IMG/VR virus record: IMGVR_UViG_2548876961_000016
Direction: 5' to 3' (one strand)
Length of the DNA: 9,442 nucleotides
Source: a virus
Taxonomy: Duplodnaviria; Heunggongvirae; Uroviricota; Caudoviricetes
This document shows, in pieces, positions 1 through 9,442 of this stretch. The notes under the pieces are model-generated. The model was given only the letters and a program-made list of their open reading frames with translations. It was not told the origin of the DNA and did not search any database. The stretch's first letter is position 1, and each line of letters opens with the position of its first letter. Both the position numbers and the translations under genes were made by a program.

Positions 1-173
1 TGTCAGTTATCATCTTCGGTTACGGTTATCGGCAGAACGCCCTGCCGCTGACAAGAGCTTATTTGCCTGACCAATCTACTCCACATGATAGATAACTATC
101 ATTTATAACATTTCATTGATTAGTCTTTATTTTTCACTATGTTACAAATAACAACTCCGTCAAAAACAGCGAA

Positions 174-230
174 ATTAACTACACCATTAACTACACCGTT
201 TCACGAACAATATCGAACAACCACGAACAA
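174..230. repeat. Tandem 12-bp repeat ATTAACTACACC x2 followed by three CGAACAA repeats at 10-bp phasing
   Basis: ATTAACTACACC at 174-185 and 186-197; CGAACAA at 204-210, 214-220 and 224-230. Helical phasing suggests a protein-binding array. Confidence 0.55.
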
Positions 231-291
231 AGATCAACACGCTTTAACCGTTATCATTTTCCGGCCATCCGTTATGAAGCTGGTGGATGTT

Positions 292-396
292 CCCCGATAT
301 GGGTATCCCCACCTACCTGGCTTTTTTTCCGGTTAAATGTTAATCAGGCTGGTGGCCTTTACATACCCTTGATCACGGTAATGATGATTCAGGTGC
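292..396. repeat. Copy A of a roughly 105-bp direct repeat
   Basis: About 95% identical to 818-933 over the shared core CTGGCTTTTTTTCCGGTTAAA(T/C)GTTAATCAGGCTGGTGG(C/G)CTTTACATACCCTTGATCACGGTAATGATGATTCAGGTGC. Copy A carries a deletion in the leading palindrome. Confidence 0.7.
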
Positions 397-817
397 GTAC
401 CTTTTCCCCAGTGGGGTAAAAGCTCCAACCGTAACGATGTTCGTTGTGGTTGCCTTGATGGTCTGCGTGGTCATTATGACCATTCAGAATTTGAAGGGTG
501 ATGTTTCCGATCTCCTCAAATTGAGGATTGTGGAAGAATCAATGGGTTAGTCTTACTTTCCCAACATCCCCCAATGGGGGTTTTCGAAATAATCAATGGG
601 TTAGGCCATAGTGCAATTTTGCACTATGGAACAATTCCAACCAGTTATCGGCATCAGGCCCACCAGCCAACGCAATTTTGCGCTTTGCTTTAATCTCAGT
701 AAGTTACCGCGCCAATTTCCGCAGTCTGTGGAAATTGGGAAGAATCAACGGGTTAGGCTGGTTTCCCCGATGTTCGCCGCTGGCGAATTTCGAAAATATC
801 AACCAGTTACCGCCGTA

Positions 818-933
818 TCCCGATATGGTGATCCCCATATCGAGATTGGATACCTGGCTTTTTTTCCGGTTAAACGTTAATCAGGCTGGTGGGCTTTACA
901 TACCCTTGATCACGGTAATGATGATTCAGGTGC
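818..933. repeat. Copy B of the roughly 105-bp direct repeat
   Basis: See copy A. Begins with the CCCGATATGG..CCATATCG palindrome-like element and ends with ...GATTCAGGTGC. Confidence 0.7.
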
Positions 934-936
934 TTC

Positions 937-962
937 CCCGATATGGTGATCCCCATATCGGG
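937..962. repeat. Perfect inverted repeat CCCGATATGG-(6 nt)-CCATATCGGG just downstream of the 307-aa gene
   Basis: 10-bp arms. Related copies at about 819-844 (right arm 8/10) and about 293-312 (right arm degenerate). No U-tract follows on the minus strand, so it is not a canonical terminator. Confidence 0.6.
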
Positions 963-978
963 ATAGATGCTGGAAAAA

Positions 979-1902
979 TCAGCTTTTCGCCAGAACGGTG
1001 ACGGCCTTATCGAGTTTTTGCCATCCGCAATAGGTGATTGCCCTGAACGCTGTAGCGTCATTCTGGAAAAGGCTAACCGCCCCTGATTCGGTTTTTATTA
1101 CCGCCTCATCAGTTGGGGTTATAACCGTGGCTTCAACGTTAATAATCAGCTTTTGAGCGTCTATCAGCATCATGCGATCCGCCTGTTCGCTCACAATTAC
1201 CGGTATTCTCAAAAGCTCTATCTGCCAGAACTCAGCATCAGTAAGCTGTAAGGCGTTTTCTACGGGCAATATTAGCGACGACGTGGAAAGCGTGTTACCG
1301 TTCGCTATGTGCTTTTTGAAAATCTCTATGAAGTTTTCGGCCTCATCAGCACCATTAAGCACGCCCTCAGGGGATACGCCAGCCACCTCCTGATCACTGG
1401 AAAGAAATTTTTTATCTATTTCTTTCACCGATTCCGATGTGATCAAGTCTCTGATCGCTGAATTTGTACCAGGGGTGCTAAATTTGATTAGCTCGTTATT
1501 CAGCATCACAATAGCGCCAAGTTTGCACAATTTTAGCGCACTTTCGTTTACTTCTCCCTCTTTGACAGGGATTTCTTCGGCTTCTTTAAGCCATTTACTA
1601 CCCTTGCCTGATATTGAATGCAATTTTGCGCCAAACGGAAGATTAAGCGCGCTGCTGATTAGCTTGCCTGGTACAGACTGCGAAAAAATATACTCGCCAA
1701 GCTCTCTTACTATCGGCTCTGCCACCAGCGACGGCATGTTATCCGTAGTCATTCTGTTGACGATGGATTTTTCAAGAAATTTCGATACTGCCGGATCATT
1801 TCTTTTCGTCATCTCTATAGCGTCAGCATGGCTAAATTTACACGATGCCAGCACGCTGGCGGCGCGAACTGCTGACACGCCTTTCATGTTTTTACAGATC
1901 AT
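979..1902 (-). CDS. Putative HK97-fold major capsid protein homologue (307 aa); product call tentative
   Basis: Strong RBS (AGGAGGAGGAAGAAG before the ATG). A central segment (LGAIVMLNNELIKFSTPGTNSAIRDLITSESVKEIDKKFLSSDQEVAGVSPEGVLNGADE, then SSLILPVENALQL) follows the conserved HK97-family pattern (SdELl.ds...sYi...L......E...fLnGdGtg..p.Gil, then sGivlNP.dw..i). Judged by eye, not by search. Confidence 0.55.
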   Translation of the reverse strand: MICKNMKGVSAVRAASVLASCKFSHADAIEMTKRNDPAVSKFLEKSIVNRMTTDNMPSLVAEPIVRELGEYIFSQSVPGKLISSALNLPFGAKLHSISGKGSKWLKEAEEIPVKEGEVNESALKLCKLGAIVMLNNELIKFSTPGTNSAIRDLITSESVKEIDKKFLSSDQEVAGVSPEGVLNGADEAENFIEIFKKHIANGNTLSTSSLILPVENALQLTDAEFWQIELLRIPVIVSEQADRMMLIDAQKLIINVEATVITPTDEAVIKTESGAVSLFQNDATAFRAITYCGWQKLDKAVTVLAKS

Positions 1903-2053
1903 CTTCTTCCTCCTCCTGGAAGCACGGGTTTAGTGTTTCGTGAAAATATGGCATCAGAACAGCGGCGGCCTGTAACCGTATTTCGGTCGACTGCTGCTTG
2001 TCGTTCATGATTTCCGTGAGTACATCAATAGGGTCTGTGATGTATTCGCTCAT
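1892..2053 (-). CDS. Hypothetical small acidic-tailed protein (53 aa), not in the ORF track
   Basis: My translation: MSEYITDPIDVLTEIMNDKQQSTEIRLQAAAVLMPYFHETLNPCFQEEEEDDL. GAGGT lies 8 nt upstream of the ATG at 2053; it sits between the TerS-like stop (2065) and the 307-aa gene, overlapping the latter's start by 11 nt. Confidence 0.3.
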   Translation of the reverse strand: MSEYITDPIDVLTEIMNDKQQSTEIRLQAAAVLMPYFHETLNPCFQEEEEDDL

Positions 2054-2064
2054 AGTTCGCTACC

Positions 2065-2553
2065 TCAGTGTTTTAAGTCTGTTGGTGGCTTAGGGATGGG
2101 GAACCGATTTGAGTAGACACTAGCGGCATTGAGTTTTTTAACCTCTTTTTTCCCAATGCTGCCGATCTTGCGGTGGGTGAACTGGGCCAGCTTAAACGCG
2201 GCATCTAAAGCCAGTTTTGGATCTGTGTCCATGTTGTCAATCAGTATCCTGCCCATTGCTTTGATGGGGTCGGGTAGGCCGTTATCCATCATCTCAATGG
2301 TGTTAATTGATGCCCGTTCCGGTGTAACTTTTTCGGTAACTTTCTTTGTAACTTTTTTCGGTTTTGTAACCTGAAAAGTTACATCAGAAGTTACAGCCTT
2401 AAGATACTTTTTCACCTCAGGATCGTTGGATAGCTGCCAGCCTTTAACCCTTGCGGTCTTTTCGCTGTATCCCGCATGTATAGCGGCTTCCGTGGGATTT
2501 GCGCCCCTTGATAACGCATCAGCAAACCGCTTTTTTTTGGTCGTTAATGCCAT
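2065..2553 (-). CDS. Terminase small-subunit-like HTH protein (TerS-like; possible packaging-specificity factor)
   Basis: N-terminus from the internal ATG at 2553 (MALTTKKKRFADALSRGANPTEAAIHAGYSEKTARVKGWQLSNDPEVKKYLKAV) matches the TerS N-terminal DNA-binding pattern (AAI.AGYS.K.A.....L). GAGG lies 7 nt upstream of that ATG. A 4-aa periodic linker (VTKPKKVTKKVTEKVT) follows. The open frame extends to an ATG at 2688 through a G10 tract, so the start is ambiguous. Confidence 0.6.
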   Translation of the reverse strand: MALTTKKKRFADALSRGANPTEAAIHAGYSEKTARVKGWQLSNDPEVKKYLKAVTSDVTFQVTKPKKVTKKVTEKVTPERASINTIEMMDNGLPDPIKAMGRILIDNMDTDPKLALDAAFKLAQFTHRKIGSIGKKEVKKLNAASVYSNRFPIPKPPTDLKH

Positions 2554-2575
2554 GCAAAAACCTCGTTTTGAGGGG

Positions 2576-2598
2576 GTGTAACTTTTCGTGTAACTTTT
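2576..2598. repeat. Tandem direct repeat GTGTAACTTTT x2 upstream of the TerS-like gene
   Basis: Copies at about 2576-2586 and 2588-2598. The same GTAAC(T)TTT motif recurs with 12-bp period inside the gene (about 2324, 2336, 2348, 2366) and inverted (GTTAC at about 2378 and 2390). Confidence 0.4.
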
Positions 2599-2671
2599 TT
2601 GAAAAGCAAAATTTTCTACGAATGAGACGGGGGACGGTGTCCAGGGTGATCGACTTTCCGGCCGGAACACT

Positions 2672-2681
2672 CCCCCCCCCC
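2672..2681. repeat. Homopolymeric tract C10 (G10 on the coding strand) 4 nt after the ATG at 2688
   Basis: Supported independently by both ORF-track translations (MTWGGG... on minus, ...LPPPM on plus). Confidence 0.8.
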
Positions 2682-2684
2682 ATG

Positions 2685-2846
2685 TCATTGCTCACCGAGT
2701 AACGAGATCAGGCCTTCAACTTCATTACTCAGCTTGTTTATTCGTGTCTCAAGCTCTGCGATCTTTTCCATCAATGGCGCTATAGTGTCTCTTGTTTCCT
2801 CGCCAATGGCCTTAATGATGCTTGCCTCGCGTTCTGTGATAGCCAT
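2685..2846 (-). CDS. Hypothetical small coiled-coil-like protein (53 aa), not in the ORF track
   Basis: My translation: MAITEREASIIKAIGEETRDTIAPLMEKIAELETRINKLSNEVEGLISLLGEQ. The ATG is 3 nt after the upstream stop with GGTGAGG about 8 nt upstream; its TGA overlaps the ATG at 2688 (ATGA). Confidence 0.4.
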   Translation of the reverse strand: MAITEREASIIKAIGEETRDTIAPLMEKIAELETRINKLSNEVEGLISLLGEQ

Positions 2847-2849
2847 TTG

Positions 2850-3044
2850 TTATGCCTCACCTGTTGCAATGCCCAGTCTTTCGCGTAACAGCACACGTGC
2901 AAGATGACCTATTGTTGGCGTGGCGGCTCTGCCGTATATACCAGCTTCATTCATCCGGCGAATAACATCGAATTGAAGTTTTTTAAGCTCGTTTAGGATC
3001 TCGTGATCAATCATCACGGTAGCGCTTTGCTTTATCTCTTCCAC
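2850..3044 (-). CDS. Hypothetical small protein (64 aa), first gene of the packaging-like operon
   Basis: Strong RBS (AGGAGGA 5-6 nt before the ATG at 3044) and an AT-rich promoter-like region upstream (3045-3132). Sequence MEEIKQSATVMIDHEILNELKKLQFDVIRRMNEAGIYGRAATPTIGHLARVLLRERLGIATGEA. Confidence 0.55.
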   Translation of the reverse strand: MEEIKQSATVMIDHEILNELKKLQFDVIRRMNEAGIYGRAATPTIGHLARVLLRERLGIATGEA

Positions 3045-3132
3045 TTTGTTTCCTCCTGATACTTATCATCGCATAATCAGTATTTTCGATAGATTATCAT
3101 TAATCAACCATTTTTTAAGATATGAGAGATCG

Positions 3133-3156
3133 AAAAAAAGCCGGATTGCTCCGGCT
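3133..3156 (-). terminator. Rho-independent terminator ending the replication operon
   Basis: Minus-strand RNA reads AGCCGGA, loop GCAA, UCCGGCU, then U6-7, about 20 nt after the stop at 3175. Confidence 0.6.
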
Positions 3157-3174
3157 ATGTGCTCACTCCTTCGG

Positions 3175-3483
3175 TTATTCTCCAGTGCTTTTAACGTTGA
3201 TGGTTGTTACCTGTTCCGCTTCTGCAATCTCCCGCTCTGTCAGCGTGGCAAAGTTTGCCGCCGCCGTGGTCATGAATGCGCTTATTAGTTCGGGATTCTC
3301 CTTCGCGTATCCTTCCCGTGTGTGGCGGTCTATAACTTTGATTGCCACCTTTAGGGAAAGCTCTGTCATGTCTAACGCTTTATATTTTTGCTGTGTTCTG
3401 TCTCTGCGCATTTTGGTCATTTGTCGCCCCTGATTCATGTTTTCGGTCGGCATGTTTGTTAAGTGATTTTGATGTATGCACAT
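3175..3483 (-). CDS. Hypothetical protein (102 aa; real start may be an internal ATG) downstream of the origin
   Basis: Minus-strand ORF followed by a clean intrinsic terminator on the same strand; the overlapping plus-strand ORFs look non-protein-like. Several in-frame ATGs, none with a strong RBS. Confidence 0.5.
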   Translation of the reverse strand: MCIHQNHLTNMPTENMNQGRQMTKMRRDRTQQKYKALDMTELSLKVAIKVIDRHTREGYAKENPELISAFMTTAAANFATLTEREIAEAEQVTTINVKSTGE

Positions 3484-3530
3484 TTATTTTTACCCCCCTC
3501 GTTTAAAAAGTTTTAGGTTGTGGTGCACCT

Positions 3531-3756
3531 CCTCTACCTCTTCTACCTAATCATCTTTCAGGTCAGTAATGGCGCGGCTTTCAGATGGGTAGAGGACTTT
3601 TCGTGGCCCTCTACCCATCCTCTACCCGCCCCTCACAAACGACCTTAATCATGGTAGAGGGGGTAGAGGGGTTTTATTAGCCTTCTACCTATCCCTCTAC
3701 CCACTTATCATGTTGAATAATATGCGTTTATTTCATTCAGGTAGATGGGGTAGAGG
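3531..3756. repeat. Iteron array (about 10 copies of GGTAGAGG / CCTCTACC in both orientations): putative origin of replication
   Basis: CCTCTACC at about 3531, 3608, 3619 and 3694; variants CTTCTACC at about 3541 and 3682; GGTAGAGG at about 3588, 3653, 3662 and 3749; variant GGTAGATGG at about 3740. Several copies are 9-12 bp apart, with AT-rich flanks, immediately downstream of the primase stop. Confidence 0.6.
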
Positions 3757-3770
3757 GCTTTTACAAAAAA

Positions 3771-5519
3771 TTATAAAAACGCGTCACAATCATCCGTTGT
3801 AATTGCGTTGGTCTGCGTTACTCCCTTAACTTTTCGCGTAATATATTCATGTCCGTAAACTTTCGCCGCTGGCTTCATGGCCTTGCTGAAATCAGCCACG
3901 TTTAGCGGCTTGCTTCTTCCTGCGTATGCCATAAACGCCAGATAGACGCGGTAAAGGCTGTTTCTGGTCGTGTACTTCACGGAATCGCCACCGCCACCCA
4001 TCATCAGGCCGCGCGCTTCCTCCAGAAAATTCAGGAACTGGCAAAACTCAATAACCGGATCTGTCTGTTGCTTTATCGCCAGTGCTTCATCACCGTCGCG
4101 CTGTTCCAGTAATAAAGCCCGTGCCTTTTCAGGGTCAGCAAAATTAGCCAGCAAGCGGCGGATAATCACAGGGATTTCAGCCGCGACCTTCTCCGGCAAA
4201 TCCTTGTCCTTTTCTGCCTCGCTAACGATATTGTCAAAGCGAAAAATAACCCGACGACGTGCCACGCCTCCGGCCCGTTCGGTGAATATCATCGGGTTGT
4301 TGTTGGTCGCCAGCACCACCGCCCTGATTACCGCCGTGAAACGCTTTTCATATTTCGGGTTAATTTCCACGGGGTCGCCGCCCGTGATTTTCTTGATGCC
4401 CGTTCCTTCGCCTGTATATTTCGGCTGGTCAGCCAGGACGATAAGACGACTCCCGACAACCTGCGCGCGCCCTCCTGCATCATCGAGTGATGTCATCTCC
4501 GCGCTTACGGTGTTCTGTTTCCCTGCCAGAAGGCTGGCTATGTGTGTGAATGTACTTTTACCGCTCCCGCCGTCTCCGGTGGCCTCAATAAACATCTGCC
4601 AGTCGTACCGGTTCGCCATAATCATGTACAGCGCGGCACATATACGCATCATCTTGCGCGGGTCTTTTCCGGCTGCGTGCTCAAGCCATTTATGAAAGTT
4701 TGGCGCGTTGTCGCGAATGTTCTCCCCTGGTGCTGGTGGCGTGTACTCAATGCCGTTGTGCGTGGTGATCCAGTTCTCCGGCGTGTGCGGGGAAAATTCC
4801 CCCGTTTTCAGGTCAAGTGCACCATTGGCGAACGGCAGCAAATCGCCGGACGGCTCCCCCATTGGTTCGGCAATAACTTTTAACGCTTCAACGGCGTTAT
4901 TGATCACGCGTTTGCTGAAAGTGGCCCTGTGCTCTGAATAGATCGCCACCATTTCGCGGCTAAGTTCCATTGTGCTGACCGGACACCATACCCCGCCGCG
5001 CCATACGTGAACGATTTCACTTTCAGGATGTACGCAAACGCCATCAAAGCGATCGGCAAGCAGCTGGGCGCGCTCACTGTCTGCCATTTGTGCCAGTTGC
5101 GTATTTTTCTGCTCCGGCATGGTAAGCCCTGCGGCAATATTTTCACGCTCAGCATTCAGATAGCGCCGCCAGTTTTCACACTTCTGACCGTGCATTCCTT
5201 CGGGGTAAAATTTTGCATCCTGTACGCCTGCCGCCGCCAGCTTCTGACCAATCTTTTTGGTCTCCACCAAGTCCAGTTCTCCTGCCTGGTACAGCCTTAC
5301 GCGTTTTTTTCCATCAGGAACAATTTGCAGTGCATAAAGTTCGGCAAGCTGATTTGGCCCAAGCCACACAGGAGGCACATTATCGCCGGATGCGGGGCCG
5401 TCCTGCTCCTGCCACTGTTTTGCATGTGCCCACGCATCACTACCCGCGAAAATAATCACCTCTGTGTCTTTGTGTTTTATTCCGCGTGGCTGTTTTTTTA
5501 CGTTCGGTGCCAGTTTCAT
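3771..5519 (-). CDS. Replication initiation primase/helicase (phage/plasmid primase, P4-family C-terminal NTPase type)
   Basis: 582-aa ORF with Walker A GDGGSGKST at residues about 315-323 and a candidate Walker B (RLIVLADQ). Its size and its position upstream of an iteron array match satellite and P4-like Pri/Rep or alpha proteins. Confidence 0.85.
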   Translation of the reverse strand: MKLAPNVKKQPRGIKHKDTEVIIFAGSDAWAHAKQWQEQDGPASGDNVPPVWLGPNQLAELYALQIVPDGKKRVRLYQAGELDLVETKKIGQKLAAAGVQDAKFYPEGMHGQKCENWRRYLNAERENIAAGLTMPEQKNTQLAQMADSERAQLLADRFDGVCVHPESEIVHVWRGGVWCPVSTMELSREMVAIYSEHRATFSKRVINNAVEALKVIAEPMGEPSGDLLPFANGALDLKTGEFSPHTPENWITTHNGIEYTPPAPGENIRDNAPNFHKWLEHAAGKDPRKMMRICAALYMIMANRYDWQMFIEATGDGGSGKSTFTHIASLLAGKQNTVSAEMTSLDDAGGRAQVVGSRLIVLADQPKYTGEGTGIKKITGGDPVEINPKYEKRFTAVIRAVVLATNNNPMIFTERAGGVARRRVIFRFDNIVSEAEKDKDLPEKVAAEIPVIIRRLLANFADPEKARALLLEQRDGDEALAIKQQTDPVIEFCQFLNFLEEARGLMMGGGGDSVKYTTRNSLYRVYLAFMAYAGRSKPLNVADFSKAMKPAAKVYGHEYITRKVKGVTQTNAITTDDCDAFL

Positions 5520-5815
5520 TTTTTACCCCTGAATACGTTAAGCATCTTTTTTATTTCCTGAATATTGGCGCGTGCTTTCTCCCTGCTGGTTGGCTTACTG
5601 CGGGGCGCTGCCTGTACCAGAGAAAAATCACGGTTGAACTGATAAACAGGCATAACGCAATCATATTCGTAGCCTTCACGGCGGTAAGTTACGCGCCGTT
5701 CCTCCACGCCCTTAATCATTACCGTGCCGCCGTACTTATCGCGGTAAATATCCCCGCACATGAATTTAGTGCGAGTTTTGCCGCTGGCAGTTAAGCCAGA
5801 ATATTTAAGTTTCAT
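5516..5815 (-). CDS. Hypothetical protein (99 aa) immediately upstream of and coupled to the primase gene
   Basis: ATG at 5815 with GGAGA about 9 nt upstream; its stop overlaps the primase start (ATGA). Basic protein (MKLKYSGLTASGKTRTKFMCGDIYRDKYGG...), no motif recognised. Confidence 0.55.
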   Translation of the reverse strand: MKLKYSGLTASGKTRTKFMCGDIYRDKYGGTVMIKGVEERRVTYRREGYEYDCVMPVYQFNRDFSLVQAAPRSKPTSREKARANIQEIKKMLNVFRGKK

Positions 5816-5820
5816 TATTT

Positions 5821-6081
5821 TTATTCTCCGATAGCGTGACCTGATAAGCCGTTAATCTTCTCTGATGTGCTCTCTATTTTGCTGGTGGAAATATTCAGTA
5901 ATTCAGAAATGGCAAAGGTTAATCTTGTCGTTGACTCGTCACGCTCGCAATTTGTCAGCGATTCAAACCAGACGTTAATAATCTCACTTACGGCATTGTT
6001 GTAAGATATTGCGCTTTGTGTGAGTTCATTCAATTCGCAAATTACGCGTTTGTTATTGTTCATAGCGTTTAAATCTCTCAT
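5821..6081 (-). CDS. Hypothetical small protein (about 80-86 aa; start at ATG 6081 or 6063)
   Basis: The ORF track starts at TTG 6084; in-frame ATGs follow at 6081 and 6063, neither with a strong RBS. Asn/Ser/Ile-rich. It overlaps the upstream ORF end and its stop sits in the RBS of the next gene. Confidence 0.4.
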   Translation of the reverse strand: MRDLNAMNNNKRVICELNELTQSAISYNNAVSEIINVWFESLTNCERDESTTRLTFAISELLNISTSKIESTSEKINGLSGHAIGE

Positions 6082-6244
6082 CAATTAACCACAGCGCAAC
6101 ACTTCCAGAAAGTTTTGCCAGAAGGCCAGCTAATGCGGATATATCACCATCATTTAATTTATTAGGGTACACCTCAAGAAGTCGGCAAATAATTTCTGTC
6201 TGGTGCGCACGTTCAGCGGCTTCGTGTAATGTAATTTCCTTCAT
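6053..6244 (-). CDS. Hypothetical small protein (63 aa)
   Basis: ATG start overlapping the upstream stop (TAATG), in a same-strand run of tightly packed small ORFs. Sequence MKEITLHEAAERAHQTEIICRLLEVYPNKLNDGDISALAGLLAKLSGSVALWLIDERFKRYEQ has no family I recognise. Confidence 0.45.
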   Translation of the reverse strand: MKEITLHEAAERAHQTEIICRLLEVYPNKLNDGDISALAGLLAKLSGSVALWLIDERFKRYEQ

Positions 6245-6474
6245 TAATGCCCCCCCCCTTTTAATTCATGTACTGCTGCAATAATTACATGTGATAAACC
6301 TGCTTTACCGGAATTACTGATTACTGAATCAATCGCCGCTTGCATATTAACGGCCTTCACGTTCTGCGTGATGCCAACGGTATAGCCGCGCTTGTTAACA
6401 GCACGGGAAAAAACGCGGAAGGTTTTAAGCACGGCACACCCCCTGACGAATACGGGCGACAAATACAGCAACAC
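6244..6474 (-). CDS. Hypothetical small protein; start uncertain (GTG at 6474 or ATG at 6345 giving 33 aa)
   Basis: ORF ends ...HELKGGGH, with GGG GGG GGG encoded by a 9-nt G tract. Its stop overlaps the next gene start (TAATG). The ATG at 6345 has an AAGG 9 nt upstream. Weak support overall. Confidence 0.25.
   Translation of the reverse strand: MLLYLSPVFVRGCAVLKTFRVFSRAVNKRGYTVGITQNVKAVNMQAAIDSVISNSGKAGLSHVIIAAVHELKGGGH
6250..6258. repeat. Homopolymeric tract C9 (G9 on the coding strand) at the junction of two small leftward ORFs
   Basis: Encodes GGG at the end of ORF 6244..6474, immediately before the overlapping stop/start TAATG. Confidence 0.8.
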
Positions 6475-6628
6475 AACCTGACGGGCAACGGCTACGCGCT
6501 TCGCGTTCCGTCCAGGCGGTTACGTGGATGATTTGAGATTCTCCGGCACTCAGGGCCAGAAAACGCCAGATGTATTTATTCAGGTTGTGCGAGTCCCGCC
6601 CTTGCGGGTGTGTGGTATGATTTAACAT
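6425..6628 (-). CDS. Hypothetical small protein (67 aa), possible first gene of the leftward operon
   Basis: Internal ATG within the long 6425..7123 ORF (MLNHTTHPQGRDSHNLNKYIWRFLALSAGESQIIHVTAWTEREARSRCPSGCVAVFVARIRQGVCRA), preceded by GAGGT 4-5 nt upstream. The longer upstream extension crosses the divergent promoter region and is antisense to the plus-strand gene, so it is unlikely to be coding. Confidence 0.3.
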   Translation of the reverse strand: MLNHTTHPQGRDSHNLNKYIWRFLALSAGESQIIHVTAWTEREARSRCPSGCVAVFVARIRQGVCRA

Positions 6629-6705
6629 AGCTACCTCGATACTGTTGCTATCGTTGGTTGTTAGACGCCCTGCATGTGTGCCACCACTGCGGGGCGTTGT
6701 TATTT

Positions 6706-6797
6706 GGTGCATCGCACCATCTGTTTTTAACCTATCAGCAAGTGAATCGCACTTCAAGCCTTTTCTCTGAATTTTTTTTGTGTATACTGAATCGCAC
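6706..6797. promoter_or_regulatory. Divergent control region with three copies of a (T/G)GAATCGCAC-type motif and a -10-like TATACT
   Basis: GGTGCatcGCACC (about 6706-6718), GTGAATCGCAC (about 6742-6752) and TGAATCGCAC (about 6788-6797). TATACT at 6783-6788 lies about 30 nt upstream of the 6819 ATG. The region sits between the leftward operon and the plus-strand small gene. Confidence 0.4.
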
Positions 6798-6818
6798 CAA
6801 CTTAGAGAGGATTCAGTA

Positions 6819-6998
6819 ATGGCAACAGGTTCAACAAATAATAAGTCGCAACAGTTAAATGCCAGATTCCCGCATGATGTTGTTGCAGACTTAGAAAAAA
6901 ATTTAGATGAAGGTGAAAGCAAAGCGCAATTTATAGTTACTGCCGTTAAAGGCGAAATCAAACGCCGCCAGCGCCGCAAGGCCAAAGAGCAGGAATAG
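6819..6998 (+). CDS. Small putative DNA-binding protein (ribbon-helix-helix-like), candidate regulator
   Basis: 59-aa ORF from the internal ATG at 6819 (MATGSTNNKSQQLNARFPHDVVADLEKNLDEGESKAQFIVTAVKGEIKRRQRRKAKEQE), preceded by GAGAGG 8 nt upstream. The GTG at 6780 in the ORF track has no RBS. The strand/helix/helix pattern and basic tail are RHH-like by eye only. Only plus-strand gene in the window. Confidence 0.5.
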   Translation: MATGSTNNKSQQLNARFPHDVVADLEKNLDEGESKAQFIVTAVKGEIKRRQRRKAKEQE

Positions 6999-7086
6999 TC
7001 CACCAGCAAGCCAGCACACTGAGCACATTGCCCACCAGACAGCAAATCGCTATGATGTTCGGGCTTATGTTTAGTGTTTTCCCATT

Positions 7087-7115
7087 GGCGACCGCCACAG
7101 GTCGCCTTTGTTTTA
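7087..7115 (+). terminator. Rho-independent terminator for the small plus-strand gene
   Basis: GGCGACC, loop gccaca, GGTCGCC, followed by TTTGTTTTA. It lies about 90 nt after the stop at 6998 and just before the alpA stop (convergent arrangement). Confidence 0.55.
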
Positions 7116-7132
7116 TGTGTCATATGTTCCCC

Positions 7133-7357
7133 CTACGCTGCCTTACCTGAATTAATACGATCCCGGCTTTTAACCCATTCCATAACCTCGGAAAGCAGCC
7201 AACCTACTGAACGACCACCCAGATTACGGCGTGACGGGAAATTCCCTTTTTTCTCCAGTTCGTAGCGTGTAGTGCGGCACACTCCTGTTAACTTACGGCA
7301 TTCATCCTCACGGATTACGCGATCTGATAGTGATTGAAATTGTGTATTTTGATTCAT
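7133..7357 (-). CDS. alpA: AlpA-family (Phage_AlpA / Vis-like) HTH transcriptional regulator
   Basis: 74-aa ORF. Core RVIREDECRKLTGVCRTTRYELEKKGNFPSRRNLGGRSVGWLLSEVMEWV matches the AlpA-family pattern (l..ev...tGlsrst.y.l...g.FP.p..lg.r.vgW...ev..W). Its position downstream of the integrase matches CP4-57-like elements. Confidence 0.85.
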   Translation of the reverse strand: MNQNTQFQSLSDRVIREDECRKLTGVCRTTRYELEKKGNFPSRRNLGGRSVGWLLSEVMEWVKSRDRINSGKAA

Positions 7358-7392
7358 AAAAAAACGTCCTCGAACGTTGCCGAACGAGGACG
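7358..7392 (-). terminator. Terminator-like or attenuator hairpin directly abutting the alpA start codon
   Basis: Minus-strand RNA reads CGUCCUCG, a 12-nt loop, CGAGGACG, then U7, then AUG of alpA. The 8-bp GC-rich stem plus U7 looks like an intrinsic terminator for readthrough from int and the 257-aa gene, but the only Shine-Dalgarno-like sequence for alpA (GAGGA) lies inside the 3' stem arm. Confidence 0.45.
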
Positions 7393-7419
7393 ATTCTAGG
7401 CGGTAGTAAAACGCCGTTT

Positions 7420-7453
7420 GTGTGATATCACACTACCAGCACGTGATATCACT
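7420..7453. promoter_or_regulatory. Pair of palindromic operator-like sites (GTGTGATATCACAC and GTGATATCAC) about 21 bp centre to centre, upstream of alpA
   Basis: Perfect 14-bp palindrome at about 7420-7433 and perfect 10-bp palindrome at about 7443-7452, sharing the core GTGATATCAC. Two-helical-turn spacing is typical of cooperative dimer binding. The second site overlaps the stop codon of the 257-aa gene. Confidence 0.5.
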
Positions 7454-8222
7454 TTTTACGTTTTTGTTGAGATTCACGCCCCAAATACTTTTGCCATGTC
7501 TGCCAATGTGTTTTTGGAAATTCTATCCCTCTGGATGCAGCTATAGAATCAATTAAATCTGCTATTTTAGGTAATGATTCCGTGTCCAGGTCTACATCAC
7601 CCATTTCTGGAATAAGTTTAATTAAAGAGTAAATAACCTCATTCCTTTTTGACGATGCTTTTGGGCTATCTTCTGTTATCTTCGGGAAGTCTCCCGTATT
7701 TTTTATATTATCTAAATCACTAGCCATCACACACAAATAGTTAACATCAAATTCATAACCACCCTTACAAAAAACATACATGAGATTATCATCACCATAC
7801 TTATTCGTAAGATGAGAACATTTTATATATTGTCTCATGCTAAATTCGACATCAGCAAAAACATATGCCGGAGTATAATAAAACCCTGATAAGCTGCTAA
7901 CATAATAACATTTGATAGAATTCCCTACAGGACCAATAATGGCACTATCTAAAAATTCAGTGTCACCAGTTAAACCAACTGTAAAATTACTTCCAAAAAC
8001 AGCAGATTCATCATTGAAAGGATATTTTATTAATTCTTCCTCATTACAACCATTGATAAAATGACATAATGAAAAATTGAATTTTTTAGCATCAATTTTT
8101 GGTATATATACAGAAATATTAAGAGCACCTATATATGCGTAATGATAAAGATCTTTTATTGCACAGCCTAACTTTTCTGCCGCTTCAGGTAACGGATAAT
8201 AGAGTCTTTTAGGTAATTTCAT
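7449..8222 (-). CDS. Hypothetical protein, AT-rich cargo gene in the int-alpA slot; N-terminal HTH-like segment, remainder unrecognised
   Basis: 257-aa ORF whose start overlaps the integrase stop by ATGA. Residues 5-35 (LYYPLPEAAEKLGCAIKDLYHYAYIGAL) resemble an excisionase/MerR-like helix-turn-helix; the rest is Tyr/Phe/Asn-rich with no motif I recognise. G+C looks much lower (roughly one third, by eye) than flanking genes (about half). Followed by a hairpin plus U-tract (7358-7392). Confidence 0.65.
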   Translation of the reverse strand: MKLPKRLYYPLPEAAEKLGCAIKDLYHYAYIGALNISVYIPKIDAKKFNFSLCHFINGCNEEELIKYPFNDESAVFGSNFTVGLTGDTEFLDSAIIGPVGNSIKCYYVSSLSGFYYTPAYVFADVEFSMRQYIKCSHLTNKYGDDNLMYVFCKGGYEFDVNYLCVMASDLDNIKNTGDFPKITEDSPKASSKRNEVIYSLIKLIPEMGDVDLDTESLPKIADLIDSIAASRGIEFPKTHWQTWQKYLGRESQQKRKK

Positions 8223-9442
8223 TTGGCCACCTTCAGCATAACAATATTTTCATGATTTCCAGCCAGCACATCGAGGCGCTCAACCCATAGATTAAGAGCG
8301 TCACGTTTTGCATCAAGATAACGGGAGTGATTATAGACTCGTTGCATTCCTGGCAACTGGTGCGCGGTAAGCTGCTCCACAACATGCGGTTCCACGCCTA
8401 AATCGTTCAGCATCGTTGTAAACGTGTGCCGGATGTCGTGCAACGTCCAGGGGGCTTGATTAATGCGTCTGTGTGCCGTTCTTCCGTACTCTGATACGGA
8501 TGATTGCCCTTTCAGTTCTCCGAGCAATAAGCCCGTGTGCCTGTTCTGCTCCACCAGCTTCATGACAAACGGCAAGATCGCTTCCGGTATTGGCCTGAAT
8601 ATTGCTACCTTCGTTTTGCTGTGTTCTTTCGGCACGGTCCAGAGCATTTCTTTAAAATCCCATTCCTGGACCTCAGAGCGTCTTAGCTCAGTGGTACGAC
8701 ATCCGAAGACAATCAGGAGGCGAATCAGGGCGCTGTAGTACGGTGGGTAAATTTTTTCATCAAGGGCGCGTAGTAATTCCCCAAGCTCCTTGTTTGTTAG
8801 TACGCGCTCGCTTATTTCTGCTTTTTTCCCAACATCACCGACAACCATATCATCAAGAACGTTGCTGATTGCGTATCGTCGTTTTCGGCAGTACTTAAGC
8901 GCCTGTTTGCATACCTGTAGCAAAAATCCGGCTGATACCGGATTACGCTTAGCAAGCTGGTCAAAACAGGCCAGCCAGTGGCGTAGCTCGCATTTTTCCA
9001 GTGGCATAGCTCCAATCTGGCTAATTATGTGTTTATTGATCCGGCTTTTCAGTGATTCGTAGTCAGTGCGCTTTTCCTTTGCGTACGATTCAAGCCAGTA
9101 AGTGAGCGCTTCCTTAACCGTCACGGGGGCTAACGCGTCCTGTACAGCATGATTAAGTTCATAGCGCGGATTTTTCCCCTCAGCCAGCCATGCGCGACAT
9201 TGCGACGCTTTTTCCCTGGCTGCTTTCAGGCTCAAATCTGGATAATTTCCCAGCCTCAGACGTTCAGGTGATATCTGCCTACCAGTTCCGGACCTGTAAG
9301 TGAAATACCAGGTTAACAGGCCATTGGTTGAATGCCTTACGCTAAGGTTGCCACCATCATTAAAAAAGGTGCTTTTTGTGGTTGGTGATCCGCTTAATTT
9401 TCGTAAAAGAGTGTCGCTAAGTCTATGAATTGCCCTGCTCAT
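8219..9442 (-). CDS. int: Tyrosine site-specific integrase (P4/CP4-57-type phage integrase family)
   Basis: 407-aa ORF. C-terminal catalytic region has the His-x-x-Arg box (LHDIRHTFTTML) and a tyrosine-containing tail (RVYNHSRYLDAKRDALNLW); an upstream Arg box is present (FGCRTTELRRSEV). The ATG is on the last bases of the window, so promoter, att site and any longer N-terminus are not visible. The stop overlaps the next gene start (ATGA). Confidence 0.9.
   Translation of the reverse strand: MSRAIHRLSDTLLRKLSGSPTTKSTFFNDGGNLSVRHSTNGLLTWYFTYRSGTGRQISPERLRLGNYPDLSLKAAREKASQCRAWLAEGKNPRYELNHAVQDALAPVTVKEALTYWLESYAKEKRTDYESLKSRINKHIISQIGAMPLEKCELRHWLACFDQLAKRNPVSAGFLLQVCKQALKYCRKRRYAISNVLDDMVVGDVGKKAEISERVLTNKELGELLRALDEKIYPPYYSALIRLLIVFGCRTTELRRSEVQEWDFKEMLWTVPKEHSKTKVAIFRPIPEAILPFVMKLVEQNRHTGLLLGELKGQSSVSEYGRTAHRRINQAPWTLHDIRHTFTTMLNDLGVEPHVVEQLTAHQLPGMQRVYNHSRYLDAKRDALNLWVERLDVLAGNHENIVMLKVAK

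Follow-up and report, generated by a model that had tools for sequence, protein, structure and literature searches.

The described satellites closest to the element reported here are those phage-inducible chromosomal islands (PICIs) that Gram-negative bacteria carry, for which the SatelliteFinder model recognizes five core components, namely an integrase, a regulator (AlpA), a primase-replicase, a capsid morphogenesis protein and a small terminase (PMC10085698). Islands with all five components, designated 'Type A', come from E. coli in 97% of cases (PMC10085698), and a major capsid gene is carried by 21 of 29 reference Gram-negative PICIs (PMC10111431). The cspD-clpS region is listed as the attachment site, with the core ATGATAGTTAT, for the reference PICIs EcCIIHE3034 and EcCI18098 (Table S1, PMC6092414). 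Here, we analyze a stretch of 9,442 nucleotides, the IMG/VR virus record IMGVR_UViG_2548876961_000016 (the whole stretch is hereafter called the window), and conclude, with a probability of roughly 85%, that it holds a complete Gram-negative PICI of ~9.54 kb, minus the last ~190 bp next to the integrase gene (int), inserted in the known cspD-clpS site. The element is an ordinary, canonical E. coli PICI with all five core components, whose family and site are both already known, and bulk catalogues of satellites probably include it already. Its pairing of a small terminase gene with a capsid-protein homologue, which a preliminary description of the window had considered unusual, represents two of the five SatelliteFinder components, and a capsid gene is found in most reference islands.

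The window is 99.9% identical to the genome of E. coli MA11 and to related genomes, and at least 80% of it is held by 29 of 5426 complete genomes. Some part of it matches in 5425 of the 5426 E. coli genomes, likely because of the chromosomal flank at 1-85, the matched part in each genome being only presumed. In MA11, clpS ends at the base just before window position 1, the integrase start codon (ATG) falls on the window's last base, and the neighbouring genes are clpS and clpA on one side and yljB, cspD and macB on the other. Positions 1-85 belong to the chromosome, where they form the upstream region of clpS, and match the empty K-12 site without a difference as far as the attachment (att) core; the earlier view that both ends of the window are still island DNA was therefore mistaken for the left end. 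The int-distal core copy, TGATAGATAACTATCATTTAT, follows at 86-106 and forms a 21-bp direct repeat with the int-proximal copy, TGATAAATAACTATCATCTAT, located at 17608-17628 of locus L001, 168-188 bases past the right end of the window. Of the two att junctions formerly placed outside the window, the int-distal one thus lies inside and only the int-proximal one beyond it. The empty K-12 site contains a single core copy, TGATAGATAACTATCATCTAT, and in the alignment both junctions diverge cleanly into island DNA on their inner side. Site-specific integration with target duplication can be read directly from the sequence, as can the origin architecture and the gene content described below.

Reverse complementation of the centre of the att core, ATAACTATCAT, gives the published cspD-clpS core ATGATAGTTAT. 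Reciprocal differences between the two core copies at positions 6 and 19 are as expected if strand exchange takes place inside the ATAACTATCAT centre. The final 8 nt of the small-protein gene yljB are shared with the int-proximal copy, so that integration regenerates the 3′ end of this gene. The expectation of a tRNA or tmRNA target was not borne out, the site being the intergenic region between clpS and yljB/cspD, and ARAGORN detected no tRNA or tmRNA gene in the window. The nearest tRNA gene, serW, was considered as a target and rejected, as it lies ~3 kb away beyond clpA. Inside the int-distal junction, positions 167-239 contain arm-type repeats (two copies of AATTAACTACACC and several of the CGAACA type) that are 74% identical to L001 17457-17529, inside the other junction next to int, and these repeats may be regarded as putative binding sites of Int or AlpA. 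One arm-type repeat, AATTAACTACACCATTAACTACACCG, present at window 173-199 and at L001 17463-17489, is the reverse complement of CGGTGTAGTTAATGGTGTAGTTAATT, given as 'att site core' in the published entry for the reference PICI EcCIDI14 (Table S1, PMC6092414); the published EcCIDI14 'core' may really be an arm repeat, or the integrase family may share arm sites.

Class was judged by the criteria of Fillol-Salom 2018 and by the components of the SatelliteFinder PICI model, both applied to the gene content, which was established from a six-frame listing of open reading frames (ORFs), family scans of these ORFs against Pfam and PHROGs, and comparison with the RefSeq annotation. A 407-aa tyrosine integrase with an arm-binding domain (8219-9442, minus strand; PF00589 and PF13356, phrog_1) is encoded at one end of the element and its gene abuts the int-proximal att junction. 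An AlpA-family regulator/excisionase (7133-7357, minus strand; PF05930, E 3.4e-16) is encoded downstream of int, and transcription runs one way, with 15 of the 16 ORFs on the minus strand. The 582-aa primase/replicase of the D5/P4 type (D5_N, DUF5906 and Pox_D5; 3771-5519, minus strand; phrog_864, E 2e-169) is followed by a replication origin at 3531-3756, in which 11 GGTAGAGG-type iterons in both orientations occupy 226 bp, with an AT-rich stretch near 3702-3739. The whole window contains 13 GGTAGAGG-type matches, 11 of them within the origin, whereas shuffled windows had a mean of 3.7 and none of 200 shuffles reached 13. The origins of E. coli PICIs lie directly 3′ of the primase gene and have the same iteron layout (PMC6092414 section 6, Fig. 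2 legend). A capsid homologue (PF05065, phrog_617 and profile searches) and a small terminase (TerS) homologue (PF03592, phrog_641) complete the 'Type A' set, the ~9.54 kb between the 21-bp repeats agrees with the small size of PICIs (about 8-15 kb), and the attachment site is one used by PICIs. The gene order proposed earlier (integrase, cargo, alpA, small regulator, small ORFs, primase, iterons and packaging genes) was confirmed by the ORF listing and the family scans.

The direct repeats and the clpS/clpA and yljB/cspD/macB flanks bear out the view that the window holds an integrative phage satellite. The scenario that had been named as its refutation, an internal piece of a full prophage, is excluded because the element measures ~9.5 kb, is bounded by direct repeats and has core chromosomal genes directly on both flanks; nothing prophage-like adjoins it. 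Consistent with this, Pfam and PHROG scans detected no tail, holin/lysis, portal or head-tail connector/adaptor gene and no large terminase (TerL) gene among the 16 window ORFs. The head set of capsid-forming PICIs (cf-PICIs), which comprises TerL, portal, prohead protease, adaptor/connector and HNH proteins, is likewise absent from these ORFs, and identity with a cf-PICI was rejected, since the window encodes only TerS and the capsid homologue of that set.

The closest known relative of the island backbone is EcCIIHE3034 (Fillol-Salom et al. 2018, ISME J), which shares the cspD-clpS site, the core sequence and the gene order with the window. Protein identities amount to 92% for the integrase, 98% for AlpA, 87% for the DUF4222 protein, 97.6% for the primase, 66% for the Icd-like protein and 73% for the phrog_1231 ORF. 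In contrast, its late cassette is unrelated to that of the window and encodes a single-stranded DNA-binding protein (SSB), a lambda gpE-type capsid protein (PF03864), a gpD-type decoration protein and a Nu1-type TerS-like protein (PF07471); it also lacks the 257-aa cargo gene of the window. EcCICFT073, which has been characterized experimentally with the helpers lambda and phi80, resembles the window in its int-alpA-primase-origin-late layout, one-way transcription, iterons 3′ of the primase gene and late capsid homologue. It has no TerS and relies on Rpp, the helper Nu1-type TerS and a lambda-like cosN, whereas the window encodes its own full-length TerS, has no lambda-type cosN outside coding DNA, occupies another attachment site and has another predicted helper family. 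The packaging region of EcCIMP1 is unrelated to that of the window.

More distant comparisons concern the packaging strategy. In pac-type Staphylococcus aureus pathogenicity islands (SaPIs), such as SaPI1 with TerS-S and Ppi, the satellite TerS redirects the helper TerL, and the window element, judged by its genes, probably works alike. SaPIs differ in their Gram-positive lineage, Stl repressor and divergent transcription, and apart from shared phage protein families no sequence relationship between them and the window element was detected. As read from its genes, the window joins a TerS, a protein resembling the SaPIbov5 protein Ccm and a mini-protein in one island. The cf-PICIs, including EcCIEDL933 and the element at phoQ in locus L006, have a related type of backbone and ~650 bp of int-distal non-coding DNA in common with the window, but encode capsid, protease, portal, head-tail connectors, HNH, TerS and TerL, of which the window has only TerS and the capsid homologue. 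P4-like satellites share with the window an integrase, AlpA, an Icd-like gene and a P4-family primase/helicase, and differ in that the window has no sid, psu, delta or epsilon gene and does not target a tRNA gene.

The capsid homologue (979-1902, minus strand) is a 307-aa protein of the HK97 type that consists of the capsid domain and an N-terminal linker, without the protease. It matches PF05065 (E 1.3e-6; 28.4 bits, cutoff 24.2) as well as the major head protein families phrog_617 and phrog_10, and the Protein Data Bank capsid protein 9d9w (E 4.7e-6). A profile of its family retrieves 2900 relatives, many of which have about 630-670 aa and align over their C-terminal half, which confirms that it is a genuine HK97-type capsid homologue. 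Its identity to the phage capsid domain is 25%, yet it is 93-100% conserved among PICIs. A comparable divergence (24% identity) separates Ccm of SaPIbov5 from the capsid protein of phi12 (PMC8569155), and the window homologue may co-assemble with a helper capsid protein in a similar way.

The small terminase subunit homologue (2065-2553, minus strand; PF03592 Terminase_2, E 2.5e-10; phrog_641, E 3.5e-43) has 162 residues in the RefSeq annotation. A 207-aa terS ORF reaching 2688 can also be drawn, in which the phrog_641 match begins at residue 46, and this longer form is probably artefactual. Window and MA11 are set apart by a single indel, in the homopolymer at 2672-2681, which is C10 in the window and C8 in MA11; the C10 tract places the upstream ATG (2688) in frame with terS and thereby creates the spurious 207-aa ORF. 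This difference could reflect a sequencing error or slippage-prone variation. The terS region also contains a cluster of GTAACTTT repeats (2324-2597), with three 12-bp-phased copies inside terS that encode a KKVTKKVTEKVT linker, one inverted copy, and two copies spaced at 12 bp upstream of the terS start. All six exact copies of GTAACTTT in the window, for which 0.30 would be expected, fall in this interval, and none of 200 shuffles reached six. Speculatively, the cluster might serve as a TerS-binding or pac site. A lambda-type cos site was rejected, as no cosN-like sequence occurs outside coding DNA and the sequence closest to cosN, with one mismatch, falls within the coding sequence of the primase.

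Between the terS and capsid genes, a 53-aa ORF (1892-2053, minus strand) encodes a mini-protein that is homologous to the conserved C-terminal segment of TerS (phrog_641, E 3.5e-7, profile positions 89-125 of 162) and ends in an acidic tail (QEEEEDDL). The link to TerS is drawn from this profile match, from tblastn against phages, which gave only weak matches, 15 of 16 of them inside annotated terS genes, and from a Smith-Waterman comparison with residues 88-137 of the island TerS, the score of which was reached by 5 of 2000 shuffles; BLASTP against TerS proteins returned nothing. The ORF is 91-100% conserved across backbones and may represent a stand-alone mimic of the TerS segment, acting as a Ppi-like decoy or interference peptide.

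The cassette is completed by a coiled-coil-like 53-aa ORF (2685-2846, ORF listing and RefSeq), a 64-aa ORF (2850-3044, ORF listing and RefSeq) and an 81-aa ORF belonging to phrog_1231 (3175-3420, PHROG scan), all on the minus strand, which on different backbones accompany terS and the capsid gene, forming a single cassette with them, at 81-100% identity. The six genes (979-3420) are conserved to this extent on at least four backbones, the integrases of which are 100%, 76% or 22% identical and the primases 48-100% identical to those of the window; the 22%-identical integrases accompany the cassette in loci L011 and L013-L016. Conversely, the cspD-clpS backbone carries an unrelated cassette in EcCIIHE3034 (L003 6311-10187) in the place of window 979-3420. 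The occurrence of alternative cassettes on the same backbone and of one cassette on several backbones indicates an exchangeable module that mirrors the head-gene family of the helper.

The closest E. coli phage relatives of TerS and of the capsid homologue reside in the same genomes, namely in prophages of the PPompW type and in Stx1a-, Stx2a- and Stx2c-converting phages. In PPompW_EH2246, the head module has the order TerS (Terminase_2), TerL, a 645-aa fusion of Peptidase_S78 and capsid protein, and portal. The island TerS is 47% identical to the PPompW_EH2246 TerS over nearly its full length, with the N-terminal helix-turn-helix and the C-terminal ~60 residues kept and a shorter, unrelated central linker, while the capsid homologue is 25% identical to residues 291-625 of the fusion protein, corresponding to the linker and capsid domain minus the protease. 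A helper-type head module is present in 1255 of 5426 genomes. A chimeric query that joined the island late genes to 1 kb of helper terL found 2-10 matching places in each of the 60 cassette-carrying genomes listed; because the longest exact match between cassette and helper is 13 nt, too short for a megablast seed, the extra places are most likely helper-type terL. Three genomes (CP020106, CP101310 and CP077491) appear, with coordinates, in both the helper-module and the cassette lists. Lambdoid prophages of Shiga toxin-producing E. coli (STEC), of the PPompW type or converting to Stx1a, Stx2a or Stx2c, are thus the probable helpers.

By analogy with described islands, a life cycle can be proposed for the element. 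As in EcCICFT073, a helper phage would switch on alpA, AlpA would drive island expression and excision, and the primase would replicate the island from the iterons. Following the model of pac-type SaPIs, the island TerS, with its diverged DNA-binding N-terminus, would bind island DNA while its C-terminal segment recruits the helper TerL, so that capsids built by the helper would take up island concatemers. The capsid homologue, if it behaves like Ccm, would co-assemble with the helper capsid protein and possibly give smaller capsids. Tentatively, the six-gene cassette might then be a device for parasitizing STEC lambdoid phages, including those converting to Stx1a, Stx2a and Stx2c, by means of a replacement TerS, a Ppi-like 53-aa decoy acting against the helper TerS or TerL, and a protease-less, Ccm-like capsid homologue, a scheme that we regard as possible rather than probable.

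Several points weigh against a mobile, helper-packaged PICI of this kind. Helper-dependent induction, excision, replication, packaging and transfer, and interference with the helper, would follow from homology with known satellites, with indirect evidence from the presence or absence of the island at its site in different genomes and from the co-occurrence with a candidate helper module. The proposed helper identity draws on protein identities of 25-47% and on a co-occurrence observed in STEC strains that are phylogenetically related. The window yielded no confident pac or cos site, and the structural model of the capsid homologue is poor (pLDDT, the predicted local distance difference test, 51). 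The predicted attP junction (…CCCACGAACACTAAC-TGATARATAACTATCATYTAT-AACATTTCATTGATTAG…) has no match in IMG/VR or in metagenome contigs of the Joint Genome Institute (JGI). The IMG/VR loci that contain the capsid gene bear IMG taxon-style identifiers of uncultivated viral genomes (UViGs), which suggests, as far as identifiers go, that they are calls from isolate genomes; for this reason they are not taken as evidence of packaging. In EcCICFT073, deletion of the capsid or decoration gene failed to restore normal lambda plaques, that is, interference stays (PMC6092414), and PICI capsid genes are reported not to be required for helper-assisted transfer (PMC10111431), so that a size-redirection role of E. 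coli PICI capsid homologues is unproven.

These last results also favour a reading in which the capsid homologue does not redirect capsid size but is a dispensable captured helper gene or an interference factor only, the island being packaged as multimers in full-size helper capsids. EcCICFT073 is indeed packaged in phage-sized capsids (PMC6092414), and Williams and co-workers read PICI late genes as captures from helpers (PMC10111431). On the other hand, the homologue has only 25% identity to any phage capsid protein while being 93-100% conserved among PICIs, a pattern suggestive of a function specific to satellites and not of recent passive capture, and its divergence equals that of Ccm, a proven size redirector. 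We consider this reading a serious contender, with a chance somewhat short of even. TerS, for its part, might act in the manner of Rpp, forming mixed complexes with the helper TerS through its C-terminal segment, which would block phage packaging and retarget it to island DNA, while the mini-protein could block like Ppi. This agrees with the fact that the C-terminal segment is far better conserved with the helper TerS than the linker is, with the proposed derivation of Rpp proteins from TerS (PMC6739421), and with the second, stand-alone TerS segment encoded beside terS. However, the island TerS spans nearly the full TerS length, including the helix-turn-helix and the C-terminus, as SaPI TerS proteins do; no Rpp chain is among its solved-structure matches, it has no detectable sequence similarity to Rpp, and it belongs to Terminase_2, whereas the TerS targeted by Rpp is of the Nu1 type. 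An Rpp-like action is therefore rather unlikely.

Two further alternatives concern the nature of the whole element. A decayed, immobile remnant, such as a degraded cf-PICI or a prophage relic that keeps satellite-like genes, would account for the missing attP junction, for about 870 bp of ORF-free, repeat-rich DNA at one end, and for the homopolymer-length difference upstream of terS. Such decay is difficult to reconcile with 16 of 16 ORFs, both att copies and both sets of arm repeats being intact, with an island that is 95-99.9% identical across genomes of several serotypes while closely related chromosomes have empty sites, and with the conservation of the late cassette at 81-100% protein identity on four or more backbones, which implies recent exchange and selection; we rate a remnant as quite improbable. 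The earlier label 'P4/PICI-like' holds in its PICI part only. A P4-like satellite, remodelling P2-type capsids by Sid and using Psu and Delta, is suggested by the common int, alpA, Icd-like gene and P4-family primase annotation, and SatelliteFinder places a typical P4-like element in 'Type C PICI' on account of int, alpA and primase (PMC10085698). However, Pfam and PHROG scans of the 16 ORFs gave no homologue of Sid, Psu, Delta or Epsilon, the late genes encode TerS and a capsid homologue of the HK97 type, the backbone shares 87-98% identity with a reference PICI, and integration is not into a tRNA gene, all of which makes a P4-like identity hardly credible.

The PICI assignment would gain wider relevance through the predicted helpers. 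If the cassette does parasitize them, the PICI would lower the particle yield of Stx phages and shape Stx transduction in O157 and other STEC; the helper link, if confirmed, would be relevant to the yield of Stx phages and to horizontal transfer in enterohaemorrhagic E. coli. Alternative cassettes on one backbone at one site exemplify how PICIs could be redirected to new helpers by a cassette swap. Only the predicted relation to STEC/Stx-phage helpers and the TerS-segment mini-protein are novel leads, and mildly so.

Among the remaining genes, a 257-aa cargo gene (7449-8222, minus strand; GC 0.31-0.33) occupies the accessory position between int and alpA. Comparison with PADLOC, Pfam, PHROGs and NCBIfam gave no match for it, and PADLOC detected no defence match among the other ORFs either; in the cargo protein, only the N-terminal ~50 residues resemble winged helix-turn-helix domains of the Xis/AlpA/MerR type. 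In the cargo family, the N-terminus is conserved and the middle is hypervariable and beta-rich, and the C-terminus is almost unchanged between relatives that are otherwise 40% identical, which suggests recombination. Immune systems have been reported at the 5′ or 3′ ends of PICIs, and the cargo gene, sitting at the int-proximal (5′) end, is a candidate uncharacterized defence or regulatory gene. A sub-threshold match to SNORA5, a eukaryotic snoRNA, inside this low-GC gene (7536-7633, plus strand; 24.8 bits against a gathering score of 30, E 0.077), the only one in an Rfam scan of the window, was dismissed as chance, and scans for promoters and terminators found no more sites in the window than in shuffles.

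Between alpA and the primase gene, the sole plus-strand gene (6819-6998; phrog_949, E 6.9e-24; RefSeq) encodes a small protein of the YlcI/YnfO family. It is followed on the minus strand by the gene for the Icd-like protein (6425-6628; family scans and RefSeq), three small ORFs (5821-6063, 6053-6244 and 6244-6432; ORF listing and family scans) and the gene for the DUF4222 protein (5516-5815; family scans).

The left end of the island is non-coding over about 870 bp, and window 162-978 is an ORF-free, repeat-dense stretch, the terminal part of which (240-978) contains an 88-nt repeat at 314-401 and 851-938 as well as hairpins at 606-629, 712-738, 817-846 and 937-962, several of them perfect or near-perfect. 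A hidden gene in this region was rejected, since comparison with hypothetical ORFs in the EcCIIHE3034 annotation showed no conservation of the frame. Pieces of the region occur in 1106 E. coli genomes, and window 162-807 is ~70% identical to the int-distal non-coding end of the cf-PICI at phoQ, which has a different packaging system; the cf-PICI preprint gives no cos-site location able to explain this shared terminal DNA. Within the region, 57 bp (499-555) share ~90% identity with a portion of the roi/antirepressor gene found in lambdoid phages, Stx1a-converting ones among them, and this stretch may represent a scar of recombination or a small element that both have in common.

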